IMG/VR virus record: IMGVR_UViG_3300044807_000039
Location: 1 to 64,000 of that record
Origin: a virus
Lineage: Duplodnaviria > Heunggongvirae > Uroviricota > Caudoviricetes
Length of the DNA stretch: 64,000 bases
Strand: one strand, 5' to 3'
Positions 11,698-26,614 of the stretch are shown one piece after another (within the stretch, counting starts at the first letter, position 1; every line of letters starts with the position of its first letter). Position numbers and translations under genes: made by a program. The notes beneath the pieces are model-generated. The model did not search any database and was not told where the DNA came from. It saw only the letters and a program-made list of their open reading frames with translations.

Positions 11698-11769
11698 CCC
11701 TCCGTAGTTCAATCGGTAGAACACTAGACTGTGACTCTAGAAACGTCGGATCGTAACCGACCGGGAGGA
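11698..11769 (+). tRNA. tRNA-His (GTG); no G-1 encoded (position -1 is C)
   Basis: acceptor CCCTCCG/CGGGAGG (one C-A), D GTTC-AATCGGTA-GAAC, anticodon CTAGA-CTGTGAC-TCTAG, T-arm GTCGG-ATCGTAA-CCGAC. Confidence 0.7.
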
Positions 11770-11850
11770 CAAAGCTTATAGCAAAAAACCACAATTCGGG
11801 CTATAAGTGCTTTCGGAACAGTCGGTGGTATTTGTTCGCGGAAAGCAATT

Positions 11851-11937
11851 GGAAGTATCGCATAGAGGCCGATTGCGCAGCTTTGCTAAAGCTGTAGAGT
11901 GTAAAAGCTCTCGTGGGTTCGAATCCCACTACTTCCG
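11851..11937 (+). tRNA. tRNA-Ser (GCT), class II
   Basis: acceptor GGAAGTA/TACTTCC, anticodon CAGCT-TTGCTAA-AGCTG, long variable arm, T-arm GTGGG-TTCGAAT-CCCAC. Confidence 0.75.
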
Positions 11938-11955
11938 CTTCAACTAGGAGGAATT

Positions 11956-12084
11956 ATGACTTGCAAGTATTGCAACAAACCTGCTAGGCTGAGAGTAGAT
12001 CCTTTCTTGAAAGATGTACACAACGAAATAGAATTAGTTTGGCTTTGCGACGACTGTTATCAGAGACGCAAGGACGATATTTAA
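11956..12084 (+). CDS. mini zinc-ribbon protein (42 aa), 'MTC' family
   Basis: RBS AGGAGG; MTCKYCNKPA...LVWLCDDCYQRRKDDI. Confidence 0.4.
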   Translation: MTCKYCNKPARLRVDPFLKDVHNEIELVWLCDDCYQRRKDDI

Positions 12085-12172
12085 ATAGATCTGTCGTGTC
12101 GGACGGCGGTTACCTCCTAGCGGAGTGTGGGTTGGCTTGGTACCAAAGCGCGAACCTTCATCCGGCGCCAAT

Positions 12173-22957: not shown

Positions 22958-24559
22958 ATGGGCCAAATGTCCAAGGCACTAAAGGCAATTAACCACAAGA
23001 ACGCCCTTGCAACCGAGCAAGGTAAGCCAACCCAGGTCAAGAACAATGGCGGAGGCTATAGCTTCAAGGTTGATGATTGGAGCCGTCTAGAGCGCTTCCT
23101 TATTCTCGGAACCGATGGTGGAACTTATTACGTCGGTCAGAATGATCTTACCAAGCAGAACACCGATTTTGTTAACGTTCTCCTGAAGAAGGATGCCGCA
23201 GAGGTTTTGCGCCGTACTGTTGACGTTTCGGATAAGGGCCGTGCACGTTTCAACTCCCAGGCTCTTTACGTTCTTGCTGCGGCAATGAACACCGAGGGAG
23301 TTGACAAGGCTTCGGTTAAGTCTGCTGTAGCGAAGGTTGCTCGTACCTCAACCCACCTGTTTGAGTATGCACAGTACTTGGAAAACCTTGGTGGTTGGGG
23401 ACGTGCGAAGCGTGAGAGCATTGCAAACTGGTACACCGAGAAGTCGGATGACCAGCTAGCTTTGCAGCTTGTTAAGTATAGGCAGCGCAACGGCTGGACT
23501 CACCGTGACATGATGCGCCTTGCACACCCTAAGGGCATGTCGCAGGTTCTTGGTAACTTCGCACTTGGCAAGGCACTTGACGGACCAGTTCCGGCAATCC
23601 TTGAAGGCTACCTTAAGGTTCAGGAAGCTAAGACTGCGAAGGAAGTTGTTGCATTGGTTCTGGAATACCGTCTTCCTTGGGAGACCGTTCCAACCGAGTG
23701 GCACAAGGATCTTTCGGTATGGCGCGCGCTTTTCGAGGCGGGCATGGGTCAGACAGCTCTCATTCGTAACGTTACTCGTTTTGCTCGATTGAATGCCTTC
23801 TCGGATCTGATCTTTGCAAAGCAGTACGCGGATAAGCTTGCGAACGCAGAGAGTATTCGTAAAGGACGCATTCACCCGATTGCGTTTCTTAACGCTTCTA
23901 TTGTTCACGAGCGTGGTCAGCTGAAGACCATTACCGAACACGGTTATGGCTATAAGCATCTTTCAAAGGATTGGACCACAAATCCAAAGGTTTTGAAGGC
24001 TTTGCAGGATGGGTTCTATGCTGCCTTTGGTAACATTGAGCCTGCAAACAAGCGCACCATGGTTGCTCTGGACGTTTCTGGTAGCATGGGCAGCTATGCC
24101 AACGGCATGGATCTTACTTGCGCGGAAGTTGGAGCAGCAATTTCAATGTTCATTCTGCGTAGCGAGCCATACACCGAGATTCGAGGCTTCTCTAGCTCAT
24201 TCGTTGATCTTGGTTTAACCGAAAACGATTCCTTCAAGCAGGTGCTTGCAAAGACCAACCGTATGAACTTCGGTTCAACCAATGCGGCATTGCCAATGCA
24301 GCACGCGCAGAAGAACAACCAGGAAATTGATACCTTTGTTGTTGTCACCGACAACGAGGTGAACACTGGCAAGCAGCCTTTCCGTGCACTAGAGTCCTAC
24401 CGTAATGCCACTGGTATCCCGGCAAGGATGGCAGTATTCGGAGTTTCAGCAAGCCCGTTCACTATCGCTGACCCGGATGACAAGGGTAGCTTAGATTTCG
24501 TAGGATTCGACGCAAATGCCCCCCGAGCACTTGCTGATTTCTCTGCGGGTCGTCTGTAA
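22958..24559 (+). CDS. rsr: Ro60/Rsr homologue (TROVE domain + vWA/MIDAS)
   Basis: 'VKYRQRNGWTHRDMMRLAHP' Ro60 signature; C-terminal vWA 'DVSGSM'; 533 aa. Confidence 0.85.
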   Translation: MGQMSKALKAINHKNALATEQGKPTQVKNNGGGYSFKVDDWSRLERFLILGTDGGTYYVGQNDLTKQNTDFVNVLLKKDAAEVLRRTVDVSDKGRARFNSQALYVLAAAMNTEGVDKASVKSAVAKVARTSTHLFEYAQYLENLGGWGRAKRESIANWYTEKSDDQLALQLVKYRQRNGWTHRDMMRLAHPKGMSQVLGNFALGKALDGPVPAILEGYLKVQEAKTAKEVVALVLEYRLPWETVPTEWHKDLSVWRALFEAGMGQTALIRNVTRFARLNAFSDLIFAKQYADKLANAESIRKGRIHPIAFLNASIVHERGQLKTITEHGYGYKHLSKDWTTNPKVLKALQDGFYAAFGNIEPANKRTMVALDVSGSMGSYANGMDLTCAEVGAAISMFILRSEPYTEIRGFSSSFVDLGLTENDSFKQVLAKTNRMNFGSTNAALPMQHAQKNNQEIDTFVVVTDNEVNTGKQPFRALESYRNATGIPARMAVFGVSASPFTIADPDDKGSLDFVGFDANAPRALADFSAGRL

Positions 24560-24704
24560 ATAGAATCTGGTAGCTAGGGGCTGCCAGGAATCGACATAGG
24601 GCGTGGTCAGATGCCATCGAAGCTCAGTCACCGAATAGAAGGTTGTACCACGACAGCTATTCGTGCTAGACTGAGCACCCCTACCCAAACTTAAGGAGTC
24701 AGGC

Positions 24705-25502
24705 ATGGAGGTAACTGGTCACGCCGCAACAGGTGCAGCCGGGGGAGCCATGCTTGGTTTGGTTCCCGGATTTATTACAAATAATATTGCTTTAGGCGTT
24801 GTGATCGTCGGTTGTGCAGGTATGGCCTTGCTGCCCGATATGGATCACCCTAAAGCTACAGCAGCACAAACCTTTGGTCCATTTTCCCGAGGTCTAGCGC
24901 ACTTAATAGAAAAGCTCTCGGCATGGGTTTATATTGCGACCAGAAAAGGCCGGGACGCACGAAGACAGGGTGGACATAGAACACTTACTCATACGTTCCT
25001 ATTTTGCGTAGCAGCAGGAATAGGAACTCTCCTTGCCGCCACAAGTAGTATTGCAGCTCTTGTAATATTGTTTGTGGCGCTTTGCTTGGGTATACGAGGG
25101 TTCTTCCCCAAGACTATGCGAAATGCAAAATCAAGACTCTTTCCAAAATTTCTAACCAAGATCTTTCCAAAGACATCAGCTAAGGTATTTCTTTACTTGG
25201 TTGCATCTATGGTACCCTTGATCATGTACGCAGGTAGCTTGCCCATGCTAACCAATGTGCAACTCGCGCTGATGGTGGCATGGGGAGCAGCAATACATAA
25301 TTTAGGTGACTGCCTGACGAATAGCGGAGCACCGCTGCTCTATCCTCTTCCTATCCAGCGACAGCTATGGTATCGTTTCAAGTTCCCGGCACGATTCAAC
25401 ACGGGAAGTGACGAAGGAAAGTTTATAGAGAAGATAATCAAACGACTCTGCTTTGTATTTATTCTGACAGTATTCTTCCTAAGGTGGTATGTAAATAGAT
25501 GA
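24705..25502 (+). CDS. membrane-bound metal-dependent hydrolase (YdjM/DUF457-like)
   Basis: multi-TM, 'HRTLTHTFLF' motif. Confidence 0.5.
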   Translation: MEVTGHAATGAAGGAMLGLVPGFITNNIALGVVIVGCAGMALLPDMDHPKATAAQTFGPFSRGLAHLIEKLSAWVYIATRKGRDARRQGGHRTLTHTFLFCVAAGIGTLLAATSSIAALVILFVALCLGIRGFFPKTMRNAKSRLFPKFLTKIFPKTSAKVFLYLVASMVPLIMYAGSLPMLTNVQLALMVAWGAAIHNLGDCLTNSGAPLLYPLPIQRQLWYRFKFPARFNTGSDEGKFIEKIIKRLCFVFILTVFFLRWYVNR

Positions 25503-25666
25503 ACAATAACCTAAAAAAGCTTTTAATAGCCGCCATTATTACTCTTATTCTTTGGTATTTAATTAGCCAGCCCACCGATGCAGCTGGAGCGGTTCATAAT
25601 GCCCTAGCAATGCTCAAGGAAGCCGCAACGAGGATTGTGCTTTTTATTAGGAGCCTTTTTGCATGA
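25499..25666 (+). CDS. small TM protein (55 aa)
   Basis: ATGA overlaps both sides. Confidence 0.35.
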   Translation: MNNNLKKLLIAAIITLILWYLISQPTDAAGAVHNALAMLKEAATRIVLFIRSLFA

Positions 25667-25935
25667 ATCTAGGTGAAAGAATTCAGCGGGTAATGATTAT
25701 CTTGTTGGACAGATATGGCGACATAGAGCATATTGAAATGCCAGAAGAATTTGATGGCCTAGATCCCATTTCGTGTATGATAAAAGCCTTTGATGAAGAC
25801 TACGCGGTCCGCACCTTGGACGGTTGGGACTGGCTTAAGCTAGATCGTAATGAATATCCTATTTTTATAGATATGATAGAATTACTAGCCGCAGAGGCAG
25901 CCGAATATATGGGAGAAGATCATGGAAGCTTCTAG
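25663..25935 (+). CDS. hypothetical protein
   Basis: 90 aa. Confidence 0.45.
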   Translation: MNLGERIQRVMIILLDRYGDIEHIEMPEEFDGLDPISCMIKAFDEDYAVRTLDGWDWLKLDRNEYPIFIDMIELLAAEAAEYMGEDHGSF

Positions 25936-26614
25936 TCTAGCAGTGCGAATGAAGTCCTACGAAGATGGAACGCGTCTCCCCAAGGGTGCTGTAATCATCC
26001 GGGTAGATGGTAAGGGTTTTCACAAGTGGACCCGTAAAGCCAATCTAGAGCGTCCCTTTGACTCACACTTTCATAGTGCAATGGGTTGGGCCATGCACAA
26101 CACCATTGACGAGATGCAGGGCTGCACCTTGGCCTATACTCAATCTGACGAATGCACCTTCTTACTGACAAATTTCGGGGAGAGGGAAAGCGGATGGTTT
26201 GATTATAAGATTCAGAAAATCTCTAGTGTTACCGCTAGCGTCTTCACCTATTACTTTAACCAGTACTGGAAGACAACCGACAAGCCACCAGCATTCTTTG
26301 ATAGTCGTGCGTATTCAACTCCAATTCAAGATGCTGCTAATTCATTTGTATGGAGGCAGCAAGATAATGACAGGAATTGGGTTCAGGCTTGGGCACATTC
26401 ACTCTTCCCGCAGAAAGATGTAGTCGGTAAATCAAACAGTGTGCTACTATGTGAACTTGAGTTCGCCGGTCACAAGGTTTCAGACGTACCCGATTGGGTT
26501 AAATATGGAACCTTCATTAGTAACGGCAGAATCTTTAGTGAGCCAAAGAATTATCAAGAAATCAATCTACTAGCAGGAATTAAAGAGGAATCAGATGCTC
26601 CCAACAAAGGCTGA
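25922..26614 (+). CDS. Thg1-like tRNA-His guanylyltransferase / 3'-5' polymerase
   Basis: 'IIRVDGKGFHKWT', 'AYTQSDECTFLL', 'VWRQQDNDRNW' match Thg1 motifs. Confidence 0.85.
   Translation: MEASSLAVRMKSYEDGTRLPKGAVIIRVDGKGFHKWTRKANLERPFDSHFHSAMGWAMHNTIDEMQGCTLAYTQSDECTFLLTNFGERESGWFDYKIQKISSVTASVFTYYFNQYWKTTDKPPAFFDSRAYSTPIQDAANSFVWRQQDNDRNWVQAWAHSLFPQKDVVGKSNSVLLCELEFAGHKVSDVPDWVKYGTFISNGRIFSEPKNYQEINLLAGIKEESDAPNKG

Follow-up and report, generated by a model that had tools for sequence, protein, structure and literature searches.

A Thg1-like protein of bacterial type and a tRNA-His gene without encoded G-1 in the tRNA and RNA-repair island of an actinophage

The 64,000-nucleotide stretch of viral DNA analysed here (the window) carries a gene that, by its sequence, encodes a Thg1-superfamily protein of the bacterial Thg1-like protein (TLP) type with the active-site carboxylates intact, as well as a tRNA-His gene with no encoded G-1. 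With about even confidence, we propose that this TLP mainly serves to repair tRNA 5' ends, or to control their quality, during infection, acting on tRNAs of the phage and/or its host. Across relatives of the phage the two features occur independently of each other, suggesting that the TLP is more likely a general tool for tRNA 5'-end repair than a dedicated maturase of tRNA-His.

The TLP gene and its product

25922-26614, + strand: 230-aa Thg1-like protein of the bacterial type, predicted to be a template-dependent 3'-5' RNA polymerase (PF04446, PHROG 4717, 4KGK)

An earlier reading of the sequence alone had taken this open reading frame for a Thg1-like enzyme from the motifs RVDGKGFHKWT, QSDECTF and WRQQD; all three are present and the assignment was confirmed. 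In the proposed check, Pfam PF04446 matches with 104.8 bits (E=4.1e-30; cut-off 29.2), the alignment running from residue 9 to 134 and taking in positions 3-130 of the model's 130, which places the protein in the Thg1 superfamily, and PHROG 4717 ('tRNA-His guanylyltransferase') matches at 3.6e-59. In the PDB search, the best solved relative is the TLP of B. thuringiensis (BtTLP, 4KGK; 5.3e-31, residues 5-199), whereas the match to human Thg1 (3OTB) is far weaker (8.4e-14) and confined to the N-terminal domain (residues 15-151). No C-terminal similarity to eukaryotic Thg1 was found: the alignments end near residue 151, and PF04446 is the sole Pfam family matched.

A shorter JGI start (221 aa) was rejected in favour of ATG 25922, because 26 relatives all share R9, K11, Y13 and E14. 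Also invariant across these relatives are R27, D29, H34, S75, D76, E77, R129, R145 and N152. Residues D29, D76 and E77 align with D29, D76 and E77 of hTHG1 and with D30, D75 and E76 of BtTLP, which are its catalytic carboxylates (PMC3701042), so that all three carboxylates are in place. The Asn specific to Thg1 (N161/N158) is absent, its position being occupied by A156 here and by M158 in BtTLP; with a non-Asn residue at this site and closer similarity to TLPs than to eukaryotic Thg1, the protein falls within the bacterial/archaeal TLP subfamily.

TLPs are a common, already annotated feature of phages (155 INPHARED records, 491 IMG/VR contigs, PHROG 4717). The best INPHARED phage relatives of the window's TLP share only ~43% identity with it. 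Among 80 IMG/VR TLP loci (±10 kb), only 25 have any tRNA and only one has a tRNA-His. In Rhodococcus phage Weasels2 the TLP gene adjoins a 2'-5' RNA ligase gene, with RtcB nearby, and Iyer et al. (2021) grouped jumbo-phage Thg1 among RNA-repair genes (PMC7824862). We found no biochemical or expression data on any phage TLP in the searchable literature.

A tRNA and RNA-repair island

The source phage is an uncultured, BE-like actinophage, and its hosts are actinomycetes. An island of ~30 kb holds the TLP gene together with 30 tRNAs, Ro60 with a YrlA-like RNA, Rnl1, Pnkp and an RlaP-like protein:

8380-35631, + strand: 30 tRNA genes with small ORFs among them (ARAGORN, Rfam)
22567-22666, + strand: candidate Y-RNA-like RNA upstream of Ro60, similar to YrlA and bearing T and D arms like those of a tRNA (Rfam RF02553)
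22958-24559, + strand: Ro60 orthologue (TROVE and vWA), RNA quality-control protein (PF05731, PF25045; conserved synteny)
24705-25502, + strand: YdjM-family membrane hydrolase-like protein, its gene separating Ro60 from the TLP gene (PF04307)
26595-28622, + strand: rIIA-like protein (PHROG 612 at 1.5e-96; synteny)
37449-38000, + strand: RlaP-like nucleotidyltransferase, a weak match (PF10127, 20.6 bits, below the cut-off of 23)
37982-39076, + strand: T4 Rnl1-type RNA ligase (PF09511, 60.1 bits)
39086-40009, + strand: T4-type polynucleotide kinase/phosphatase, Pnkp (PF25109, 142.4 bits, and a P-loop kinase domain)

The 3' end of the TLP gene overlaps the start of rIIA by 20 nt, suggesting that the two are probably translationally coupled, and in every family member examined the two genes overlap or abut. 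Ro60 lies 1.4 kb upstream of the TLP gene, and the YdjM-family gene is equally placed in three relatives (L002, L008 and L096). The candidate YrlA-like RNA matches RF02553 with 29.4 bits (E=7e-4), under the gathering score of 69; tRNA-like matches also lie directly upstream of Ro60 in L003 and L094, and Rhodococcus phage Trina has an annotated 'tRNA-OTHER' pseudogene directly upstream of its Ro gene. All 30 of the window's tRNAs have an encoded C74, and eight have a G1.U72 wobble.

The tRNA-His gene

11627-11655, + strand: Sigma-70-like promoter TTGACA-17-TAGAAT (11/12), ~42 nt upstream of tRNA-His
11698-11769, + strand: tRNA-His(GTG), 'class II' as defined below (ARAGORN, Rfam, direct sequence reading, acceptor table)

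ARAGORN predicts tRNA-His(gtg) at 11698-11770 and Rfam RF00005 matches 11698-11769 with 58.1 bits, both giving the cloverleaf and GUG anticodon of a canonical bacterial tRNA-His. Direct reading of the acceptor stem yields C1-G72, C2-G71, the mismatch C3xA70, U4.G69, C5-G68, C6-G67 and G7-C66. The discriminator N73 is A (11769), C74 is encoded at 11770 without the remainder of CCA, and position -1 (11697) is C. Instead of the encoded G-1:C73 and 8-bp acceptor stem of the canonical bacterial form, this gene thus has C-1 and A73, and the claim that it lacks an encoded G-1 is borne out by ARAGORN, Rfam and direct reading alike. We also looked for another start that would give an encoded G-1 and a better cloverleaf. 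Positions -1 to -6 hold no G (preceding sequence ...ggtgcatatc), which leaves no such start; a helix shifted by one base was rejected, as it breaks the 7:66 pair and is not kept in the L009 orthologue.

The G-1-less gene is the window's sole tRNA-His. Of the window's 30 tRNAs it is also the only one whose acceptor pairs 1-3 include a true mismatch, a feature that might single it out as a particular substrate of the TLP. The strong promoter-like site would give a leader of ~35-40 nt, so that RNase P processing would be needed, and direct reading finds a TTGACA-17-TAGAAT-type motif upstream of the orthologous tRNA-His in L007 as well.

tRNA-His and TLP across relatives

We define here an actinophage 'class II' tRNA-His by C1-G72, C2-G71, a non-Watson-Crick 3:70, A73 and a non-G at -1. 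Its members come from the window, L009, L340, Trina, L328, L349, L154 and Weasels2, and in at least eight class II sequences 3:70 reads CxA, CxC, CxA, UxU (Trina), U.G (three times) and CxU. Class II is a conserved actinophage class that is found with or without a phage TLP. Weasels2 encodes both, and Trina, which infects the same host strain, has class II as the only tRNA-His found; a TLP was detected in Trina neither by local tblastn (best E=0.07) nor, over 50-139 kb, by hmmsearch with a profile from 26 TLP relatives, and Trina is absent from the INPHARED TLP matches. L340 likewise has a class II tRNA-His and no TLP within 10 kb of rIIA. A canonical tRNA-His with G-1:C73 (+CCA) occurs in the TLP-carrying relative L008/L217 and in the more distant L072, L240 and L290.

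The -1/73 combination in TLP-carrying lineages is C/A (window, L009), A/A (L328, L349, Weasels2), U/C (L012, with CCA), A/U (L094) or G/A (L003, L095), and only L008 is canonical. Non-canonical -1/73 is seen in 9/10 TLP-carrying lineages of the family compared with 8/14 loci without TLP, and a canonical tRNA-His in 1/9 with TLP compared with 6/14 without, a difference that is not significant (Fisher p=0.18). This weak trend fits some role of the TLP in tRNA-His maturation. By itself, a base other than G at -1 is nothing unusual in viral tRNA-His: in a sample of 62 distinct genes from IMG/VR viral contigs, G-1 with C73 is present in only 32, and ~40% lack an encoded G-1.

Role of the TLP

BtTLP shows a 5-160-fold preference for 5'-truncated tRNAs, adds nucleotides on a Watson-Crick template and has no specificity for tRNA-His (PMC3061083). 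The phage protein would similarly act as an ATP/GTP-dependent 3'-5' RNA polymerase that restores lost 5' nucleotides of tRNAs, with the 3' strand of the acceptor stem serving as template, a function complementary to anticodon-loop repair by the phage's Pnkp and Rnl1. The G-1-less tRNA-His would then be a separate feature, belonging to a class that exists without needing a TLP; N-1 addition to class II tRNA-His by the TLP is possible. The damage to be mended is hypothetical, since we are aware of no host nuclease that shortens tRNAs from the 5' end when phages infect.

The sequence-only reading had predicted that the TLP supplies the missing G-1, with 5'-end repair of the phage tRNAs as its second option. 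The second option is the better supported of the two; of the first, the enzyme assignment stands, but a necessity of G-1 addition is not supported. As a proposal for the primary job of the TLP, tRNA-His maturation would have RNase P cut at +1 and the TLP add the missing -1, either G or a templated U opposite A73, producing the 5'-phosphorylated N-1 needed by HisRS. We regard this as unlikely, although the window's only tRNA-His lacks G-1, and -1/73 varies very freely among TLP-carrying lineages, L008 alone being canonical. L012 (U-1, C73, CCA) would even be a textbook substrate for a templated TLP, since BtTLP adds G-1 opposite C73 with a kcat/KM of 5500 M-1 s-1 (PMC3061083). There is also precedent in archaea that lack an encoded G-1 and carry a Thg1 homologue (PMC3245924) and in DdiTLP2, which adds G-1 opposite C73 in mitochondria (PMC6471195). 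However, BtTLP, the characterised bacterial TLP, makes poor use of A73 as a template for G: it adds G-1 there ~50-fold worse than opposite C73, and prefers U-1 by ~40:1 (PMC3061083). Furthermore, class II persists in Trina and L340 as described above, several TLP carriers (L008/L217, L072, L240, L290) encode canonical G-1:C73, the family association is not significant, and many viral tRNA-His genes lack G-1 anyway. TLPs are also frequent in phages of Caulobacter and Brevundimonas (20 INPHARED TLP records), and Caulobacter's own tRNA-His has no G-1 (PMC3245924).

Two further proposals rest on other features of the island. The TLP might act mainly on other RNAs, such as the tRNA-like domain of the Y-like RNA or 5'-damaged non-tRNA RNAs, or have a non-repair role. 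The conserved placement of its gene downstream of Ro60 and the YrlA-like RNA is in keeping with this, as is the independence of TLPs from the tRNA-His anticodon, whose recognition is a Thg1 trait (PMC6471195); yet the characterised TLP substrates are all tRNAs or tRNA-like acceptor helices, and the stretches examined of the TLP-carrying L008 and L096 have no Ro60, making the proposal improbable. Less probable still is a mitochondrial-style 5' editing, in which nucleotides 1-3 are removed on account of C3xA70 and then rebuilt by the TLP as C1, C2 and U3 on G72, G71 and A70. The conserved non-Watson-Crick 3:70 of class II does lie within positions 1-3, which DdiTLP3 edits in mitochondria (PMC6471195). 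But just 1/30 of the window's tRNAs is affected, Trina retains UxU where no TLP was found, and no candidate 5' trimming nuclease was identified. The mismatch is moreover kept across lineages through different nucleotide combinations, which looks like a selected structural signal rather than tolerated decay.

Class II may have a significance of its own. Speculatively, and with rather little confidence, it may form a distinct conserved actinophage class in which the non-Watson-Crick 3:70 is obligatory and which is no normal substrate for a G-1:C73-dependent host HisRS. Three readings share that low confidence. In TLP-encoding phages the TLP might add -1 post-transcriptionally, possibly as a templated U-1:A73, a Thg1-type maturation of tRNA-His that would be the first in a virus; class II might use a new tRNA-His identity route without need for G-1; or it might be charged by another synthetase, which would amount to deliberate His-codon mistranslation. 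A73 with C1-G72 resembles the acceptor determinants of bacterial tRNA-Pro, and G3.U70 with A73, as found in L095, is the AlaRS determinant.

Comparison with known systems

The window's TLP shares with BtTLP (PDB 4KGK/4KGM) the three carboxylates, the equivalents of R27, R129 and R145, and a non-Asn at the Thg1 N161 position. Unlike BtTLP, it is phage-encoded by a gene overlapping rIIA, and its activity and substrates are predictions from sequence. With eukaryotic Thg1 (yeast/human, 3OTB) it has the superfamily and catalytic core in common. Eukaryotic tRNA-His, like the window's, has A73 and no encoded G-1, but its first pair is G1-C72 rather than C1-G72, and eukaryotic Thg1 adds G-1 opposite A73 without a template. 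In the G-1-less tRNA-His of Alphaproteobacteria the first pair is G1.U72, whereas the window's gene, from a phage of actinomycetes, has C1-G72 in place of U72. Alphaproteobacterial (Caulobacter) tRNA-His does resemble the window's in having A73 and no G-1, and it is paired with a divergent, co-evolved HisRS (PMC3245924).

DdiTLP2 and the TLPs of G-1-less archaea likewise occur together with a tRNA-His gene without G-1, but they add a templated G-1 opposite C73; N73 in the window is A, and the C73 arrangement is seen only in its relative L012. Mitochondrial 5' editing (DdiTLP3; Acanthamoeba) also combines a TLP with mismatches at acceptor positions 1-3, in many tRNAs, whereas a single tRNA is affected here and a relative in which searches found no TLP retains the mismatch. 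Finally, the components of T4 Pnkp/Rnl1 repair and of the bacterial Rsr(Ro60)-YrlA-RtcB operons recur in the window's island, namely Pnkp, Rnl1, Ro60 and a YrlA-like RNA. Their tasks are to repair breaks in the anticodon loop or to degrade misfolded RNA, and the TLP would widen such a repertoire to 5'-terminal damage.

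The window tRNA-His has no encoded G-1

11698-11770 (ARAGORN) or 11698-11769 (Rfam tRNA model, 58.1 bits), + strand: tRNA-His(GTG), found by both callers
11627-11655: strong promoter-like site, TTGACA-17-TAGAAT (11/12), upstream of tRNA-His

The sequence-only reading held that this tRNA-His lacks an encoded G-1, and the gene bears this out: the base at -1 is C and none of positions -1 to -6 is G, so no other start would give an encoded G-1. As read from the sequence, the acceptor stem pairs as C1-G72, C2-G71, C3xA70, U4.G69, C5-G68, C6-G67, and G7-C66, and the discriminator A73 at 11769 is followed by C74. 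A helix slipped by one base was also ruled out, since it is conserved neither in the related locus L009 nor in Rhodococcus phage Trina. The promoter-like site predicts a transcript with a leader of ~35-40 nt, for which RNase P would be needed.

ORF 25922-26614 is predicted to be an intact bacterial-type Thg1-like protein

All three Thg1 motifs quoted for ORF 25922-26614 are present, and the ORF scores 104.8 bits against PF04446 (cut-off 29.2). It matches PHROG 4717 'tRNA-His guanylyltransferase' (3.6e-59), the solved structure closest to it is 4KGK, the Thg1-like protein of Bacillus thuringiensis (BtTLP; 5.3e-31, residues 5-199), and human and Candida Thg1 align to it in the N-terminal domain only (~1e-13). 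By alignment the catalytic carboxylates are D29, D76, and E77, the reference residues being D30, D75, and E76 in BtTLP and D29, D76, and E77 in hTHG1 (PMC3701042). These three, together with R27, H34, S75, R129, R145, and N152, are invariant in 26 relatives, and the Thg1-specific Asn position (N161 in yeast, M158 in BtTLP) is A156. The conserved active site and A156 thus indicate that the window Thg1-like protein (TLP) is, as far as its sequence can tell, an intact bacterial-type enzyme; the phage gene family to which it adds a divergent new member is known and already annotated.

The TLP gene lies in an RNA-repair island

22567-22666, + strand: candidate YrlA-like (Y RNA-like) RNA just upstream of Ro60 (29.4 bits, E=7e-4, below the gathering score)
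22958-24559: Ro60 orthologue, upstream of the TLP gene
37449-40009: RlaP-like nucleotidyltransferase (weak match), Rnl1-type RNA ligase, and T4-type Pnkp, downstream of the tRNA array
54358-55011: second RNA_ligase-family protein (PF09414), part of the tRNA repair kit

The surroundings of the TLP gene form an island of RNA repair and quality control. The end of the gene runs 20 nt into rIIA, and 9/9 relatives fetched have either a 4-20-nt overlap or a gap of 3 nt at this junction. The closest cultured TLP, that of Rhodococcus phage Weasels2 (43% identity), adjoins a 2'-5' RNA ligase and has RtcB nearby. In the region 22034-22420, a tmRNA-like T-arm fragment (22377-22413) lies downstream of a promoter-like site (22034-22062); tRNA-like matches occur directly upstream of Ro60 in the related loci L003 (4851-5007) and L094 (4807-4890), and in Trina this position holds a pseudogene annotated as 'tRNA-OTHER'.

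The window phage is uncultured. No close cultured relative of it was found, as megablast against INPHARED gave no match and INPHARED TLPs reach at most 43% identity. Among cultured phages, the closest are those of Streptomyces cluster BE, along with Trina and Weasels2 of Rhodococcus. Similarity of the terminase (4166-5953, 49.6% identical) and rIIA (26595-28622, ~37%) to the cluster-BE phages suggests that the host is probably an actinomycete. Among the window tRNAs lie genes for SPFH/Band_7 (10740-11630), Macro-domain (13746-14204), and DUF7873 (15075-15806, 315.9 bits) proteins, which are syntenic across the phage family; one clue to the host is that an assembly of Prauserella coralliicola contains the Band_7 homologue P0129.

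A conserved tRNA-His class with a non-Watson-Crick 3:70 pair

As a baseline, viral tRNA-His genes were sampled from IMG/VR by a pattern scan regardless of TLP, with the register set from the T arm. G-1 with C73 was seen in 32 of the 62 distinct genes, C73 without G-1 in 14, and A73 in about a dozen; phage tRNA-His without encoded G-1 is therefore common. Five of the A73 genes have C1-G72, one of them, on the unrelated contig L154, with C3xU70.

The window gene belongs to a class (class II) whose eight sequences, drawn from six or more lineages, have in common C1-G72, C2-G71, A73, and a non-G at -1. The 3:70 pair is never Watson-Crick (CxA, CxC, CxA, UxU, U.G three times, and CxU), and the other acceptor pairs co-vary normally, as at 6:67 (C-G in the window, G-C in L009) and 4:69 (U.G or U-A). 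The 3:70 position looks like a selected structural signal, whose reader could be HisRS, a TLP, RNase P, or another synthetase. Within the literature searched the class is undescribed, and its 3:70 pair together with A73 raises the question of its route to tRNA identity. Nothing usable was found in the literature on the idea that AlaRS recognition is supported by a C.A mispair at 3:70.

Several further traits of these tRNAs were noted. In the T-loop, A54 replaces T54 in the window (ATCGTAA, 11750-11756) and in Weasels2 (ATCAGTA), and the remaining class II members have the usual TTCGAGT. G3.U70 with A73 are classical AlaRS determinants and occur in the tRNA(GUG) of L095 (18192-18265), and in that of L003 (18280-18352) A73 is combined with G4.U69; U-2 and G-1 are retained in both, and from these sequences mischarging is conceivable. 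Another recurrent non-canonical trait of phage tRNA-His is a tandem UxU mismatch in the acceptor stem, at positions 4-5 or 5-6, seen in many viral genes (L097, L102, L122, L149, L153, L124, L170, and L072) and also in the second tRNA-His of phage NootNoot (5727-5802).

ARAGORN finds 30 tRNA genes in the window (8380-35631, all + strand). C74 directly follows the discriminator in 30/30, and only Glu(ttc) encodes the full CCA; the same C74 pattern is seen in L002, L003, NootNoot, and Trina, with or without a TLP, suggesting that 3' processing or CCA completion follows one rule throughout the family. G1.U72 is the first acceptor pair in 8/30, every one with A73, and is equally frequent in relatives (L002 7/17, L003 6/11, Trina ~9/27). 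The window genes concerned are:

8380: Glu(ctc)
8465: Glu(ttc)
8876: Ile(tat)
14736: Lys(ttt)
18734: Leu(tag)
18983: Val(tac)
31596: Leu(caa)
32716: Leu(taa)

A link of the TLP to universal C74 or frequent G1.U72 was rejected, both being present in two phages without a TLP hit, NootNoot and Trina. The tRNA at 16332-16407 (+) has an 8-nt anticodon loop (ARAGORN anticodon CCTT), G3.U70, and G73 (Rfam 41.1 bits), and by its sequence would fit an unusual decoder, perhaps of the +1 frameshift type. Two tRNAs of L011 were called with 2-base anticodons. The tRNA-Asn(GTT) of NootNoot, L007, L096, and Trina has U1-A72, G2-C71, G3.U70, and G73; all pairs of the window tRNA-Asn are Watson-Crick.

The tRNA-His type does not follow the TLP

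The tRNA-His genes of relatives were collected around three anchor genes (those for the TLP and rIIA, and the adjacent Band_7 gene). Those of L009, L012, and L349 were missed by ARAGORN and recovered by a custom anticodon-arm plus T-arm scan.

tRNA-His type in the window phage and related loci (position -1; first pair; 3:70; discriminator)
Window, TLP: C; C1-G72; CxA; A73
L009, TLP lineage (85% identical to TLP-carrying L002): C; C1-G72; CxC; A73 (+CCA)
L328 and L349, TLP: A; C1-G72; U.G; A73
Weasels2, TLP: A; C1-G72; U.G; A73
L012, TLP: U; G1-C72; paired; C73 (+CCA)
L094, TLP: A; G1-C72; paired; U73
L003/L004 and L095, TLP: G; U1-A72; paired (G.U in L095); A73
L008/L217, TLP: G; G1-C72; paired; C73 (+CCA), canonical
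NootNoot and Jada, no TLP detected: canonical
L317, L320, L341, and L354, no TLP detected: G-1 with C73
L304 (BillNye), L315, L338, L343, and L348, no TLP detected: non-G at -1, C73
L342, no TLP detected: U73
L340 and L345 (Trina), no TLP detected: C1-G72/A73 class, as in the window

Canonical tRNA-His occurs in 1/9 with a TLP versus 6/14 without, a difference that is not significant (Fisher p=0.18) among lineages that are not independent. TLP absence was checked directly in Trina only (50-139 kb), and for IMG/VR loci within +-10 kb of rIIA; by profile search, L328 and L349 alone of 80 rIIA-anchored loci carry one. Genomic linkage of the TLP and tRNA-His across viruses was rejected, with one tRNA-His in 80 IMG/VR TLP loci. 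Metagenome TLP loci gave three tRNA-His in 80, all canonical, and no TLP gene was found in 80 randomly sampled tRNA-His loci, which are too short for this absence to carry weight.

The clearest comparison comes from two cultured phages of one host strain, Rhodococcus erythropolis RIA 643. Weasels2 encodes a TLP and a class II tRNA-His. The sole tRNA-His found in Trina (50-139 kb) is of the same class (C at -1, C1-G72, C2-G71, U3xU70, A73), and no TLP was found in that region, which begins within the tape-measure gene (43.6-50.7 kb), by tblastn (best E=0.07) or by hmmsearch with a profile from the 26 TLP relatives. Trina is also not among the INPHARED TLP matches, in which Rhodococcus phages have at most four records, three of them Weasels2 (two records) and Grayson. 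No Rhodococcus was found among 61 bacterial genomes with TLP relatives, a search bounded by its patterns. As both phages have the class, class II tRNA-His does not depend on a phage TLP, the absence in Trina covering 50-139 kb. The G-1-less tRNA-His is real and is not specific to TLP-encoding phages.

Possible functions of the phage TLP

The two genes had been linked by the prediction that the TLP adds G-1 to the phage tRNA-His or repairs phage tRNA 5' ends, and of this link the repair branch fares better. Templated repair of tRNA 5' ends by the window TLP, within a phage RNA-repair island, is the best supported reading, and we give it an even chance. BtTLP favours 5'-truncated tRNAs 5-160-fold and is not restricted to tRNA-His (PMC3061083). 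The same enzyme adds G-1 opposite C73 ~50-fold better than opposite A73, and with A73 favours U-1 over G-1 by ~40 to 1 (PMC3061083). This A73 template problem counts against dedicated N-1 addition to the phage tRNA-His, as do Trina, whose tRNA-His is class II although no TLP was found in it, and the canonical tRNA-His of some TLP-carrying phages. Such a maturation role would fit the free variation of -1 and 73 across TLP-carrying lineages and the U-1, C73 arrangement of L012, but on balance we consider it rather unlikely.

That the 3:70 mismatch undergoes 5' editing of the mitochondrial kind is very unlikely, and action of the TLP on other RNAs, for example a Ro60-associated RNA, is a minor possibility. 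The main value of the comparison lies in the conserved tRNA-His class and in a testable natural pair, Weasels2 with a TLP and Trina with none found, which share one host strain and one G-1-less tRNA-His class.

Phage TLPs and known systems

By tblastn, 155 INPHARED records hold relatives of the window TLP, most of which bear the annotation 'tRNA-His guanylyltransferase', the largest groups by host being Bacillus (44), Prevotella Lak phages (15), Caulobacter (13), Mycobacterium (11), and Brevundimonas (7); a profile search found 491 IMG/VR contigs with a TLP. Brevundimonas is, like Caulobacter, an alphaproteobacterium. Caulobacter tRNA-His is altogether without G-1 (PMC3245924), yet phages of both genera carry TLPs, which speaks for some function besides providing HisRS identity. 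Phage Thg1 has been in literature lists since 2010 (PMC2904730) and was classed under RNA repair in a 2021 survey (PMC7824862); phage genome papers say only that it 'may modify phage or host tRNAs', and no experimental study of any phage TLP was found in the literature searched. Since an enzyme of this type is carried where there is no obvious need for it, bacteria encoding the G-1 of their tRNA-His, the in vivo role of bacterial-type TLPs is an old question, and the window sets one such protein within an explicit RNA-repair island.
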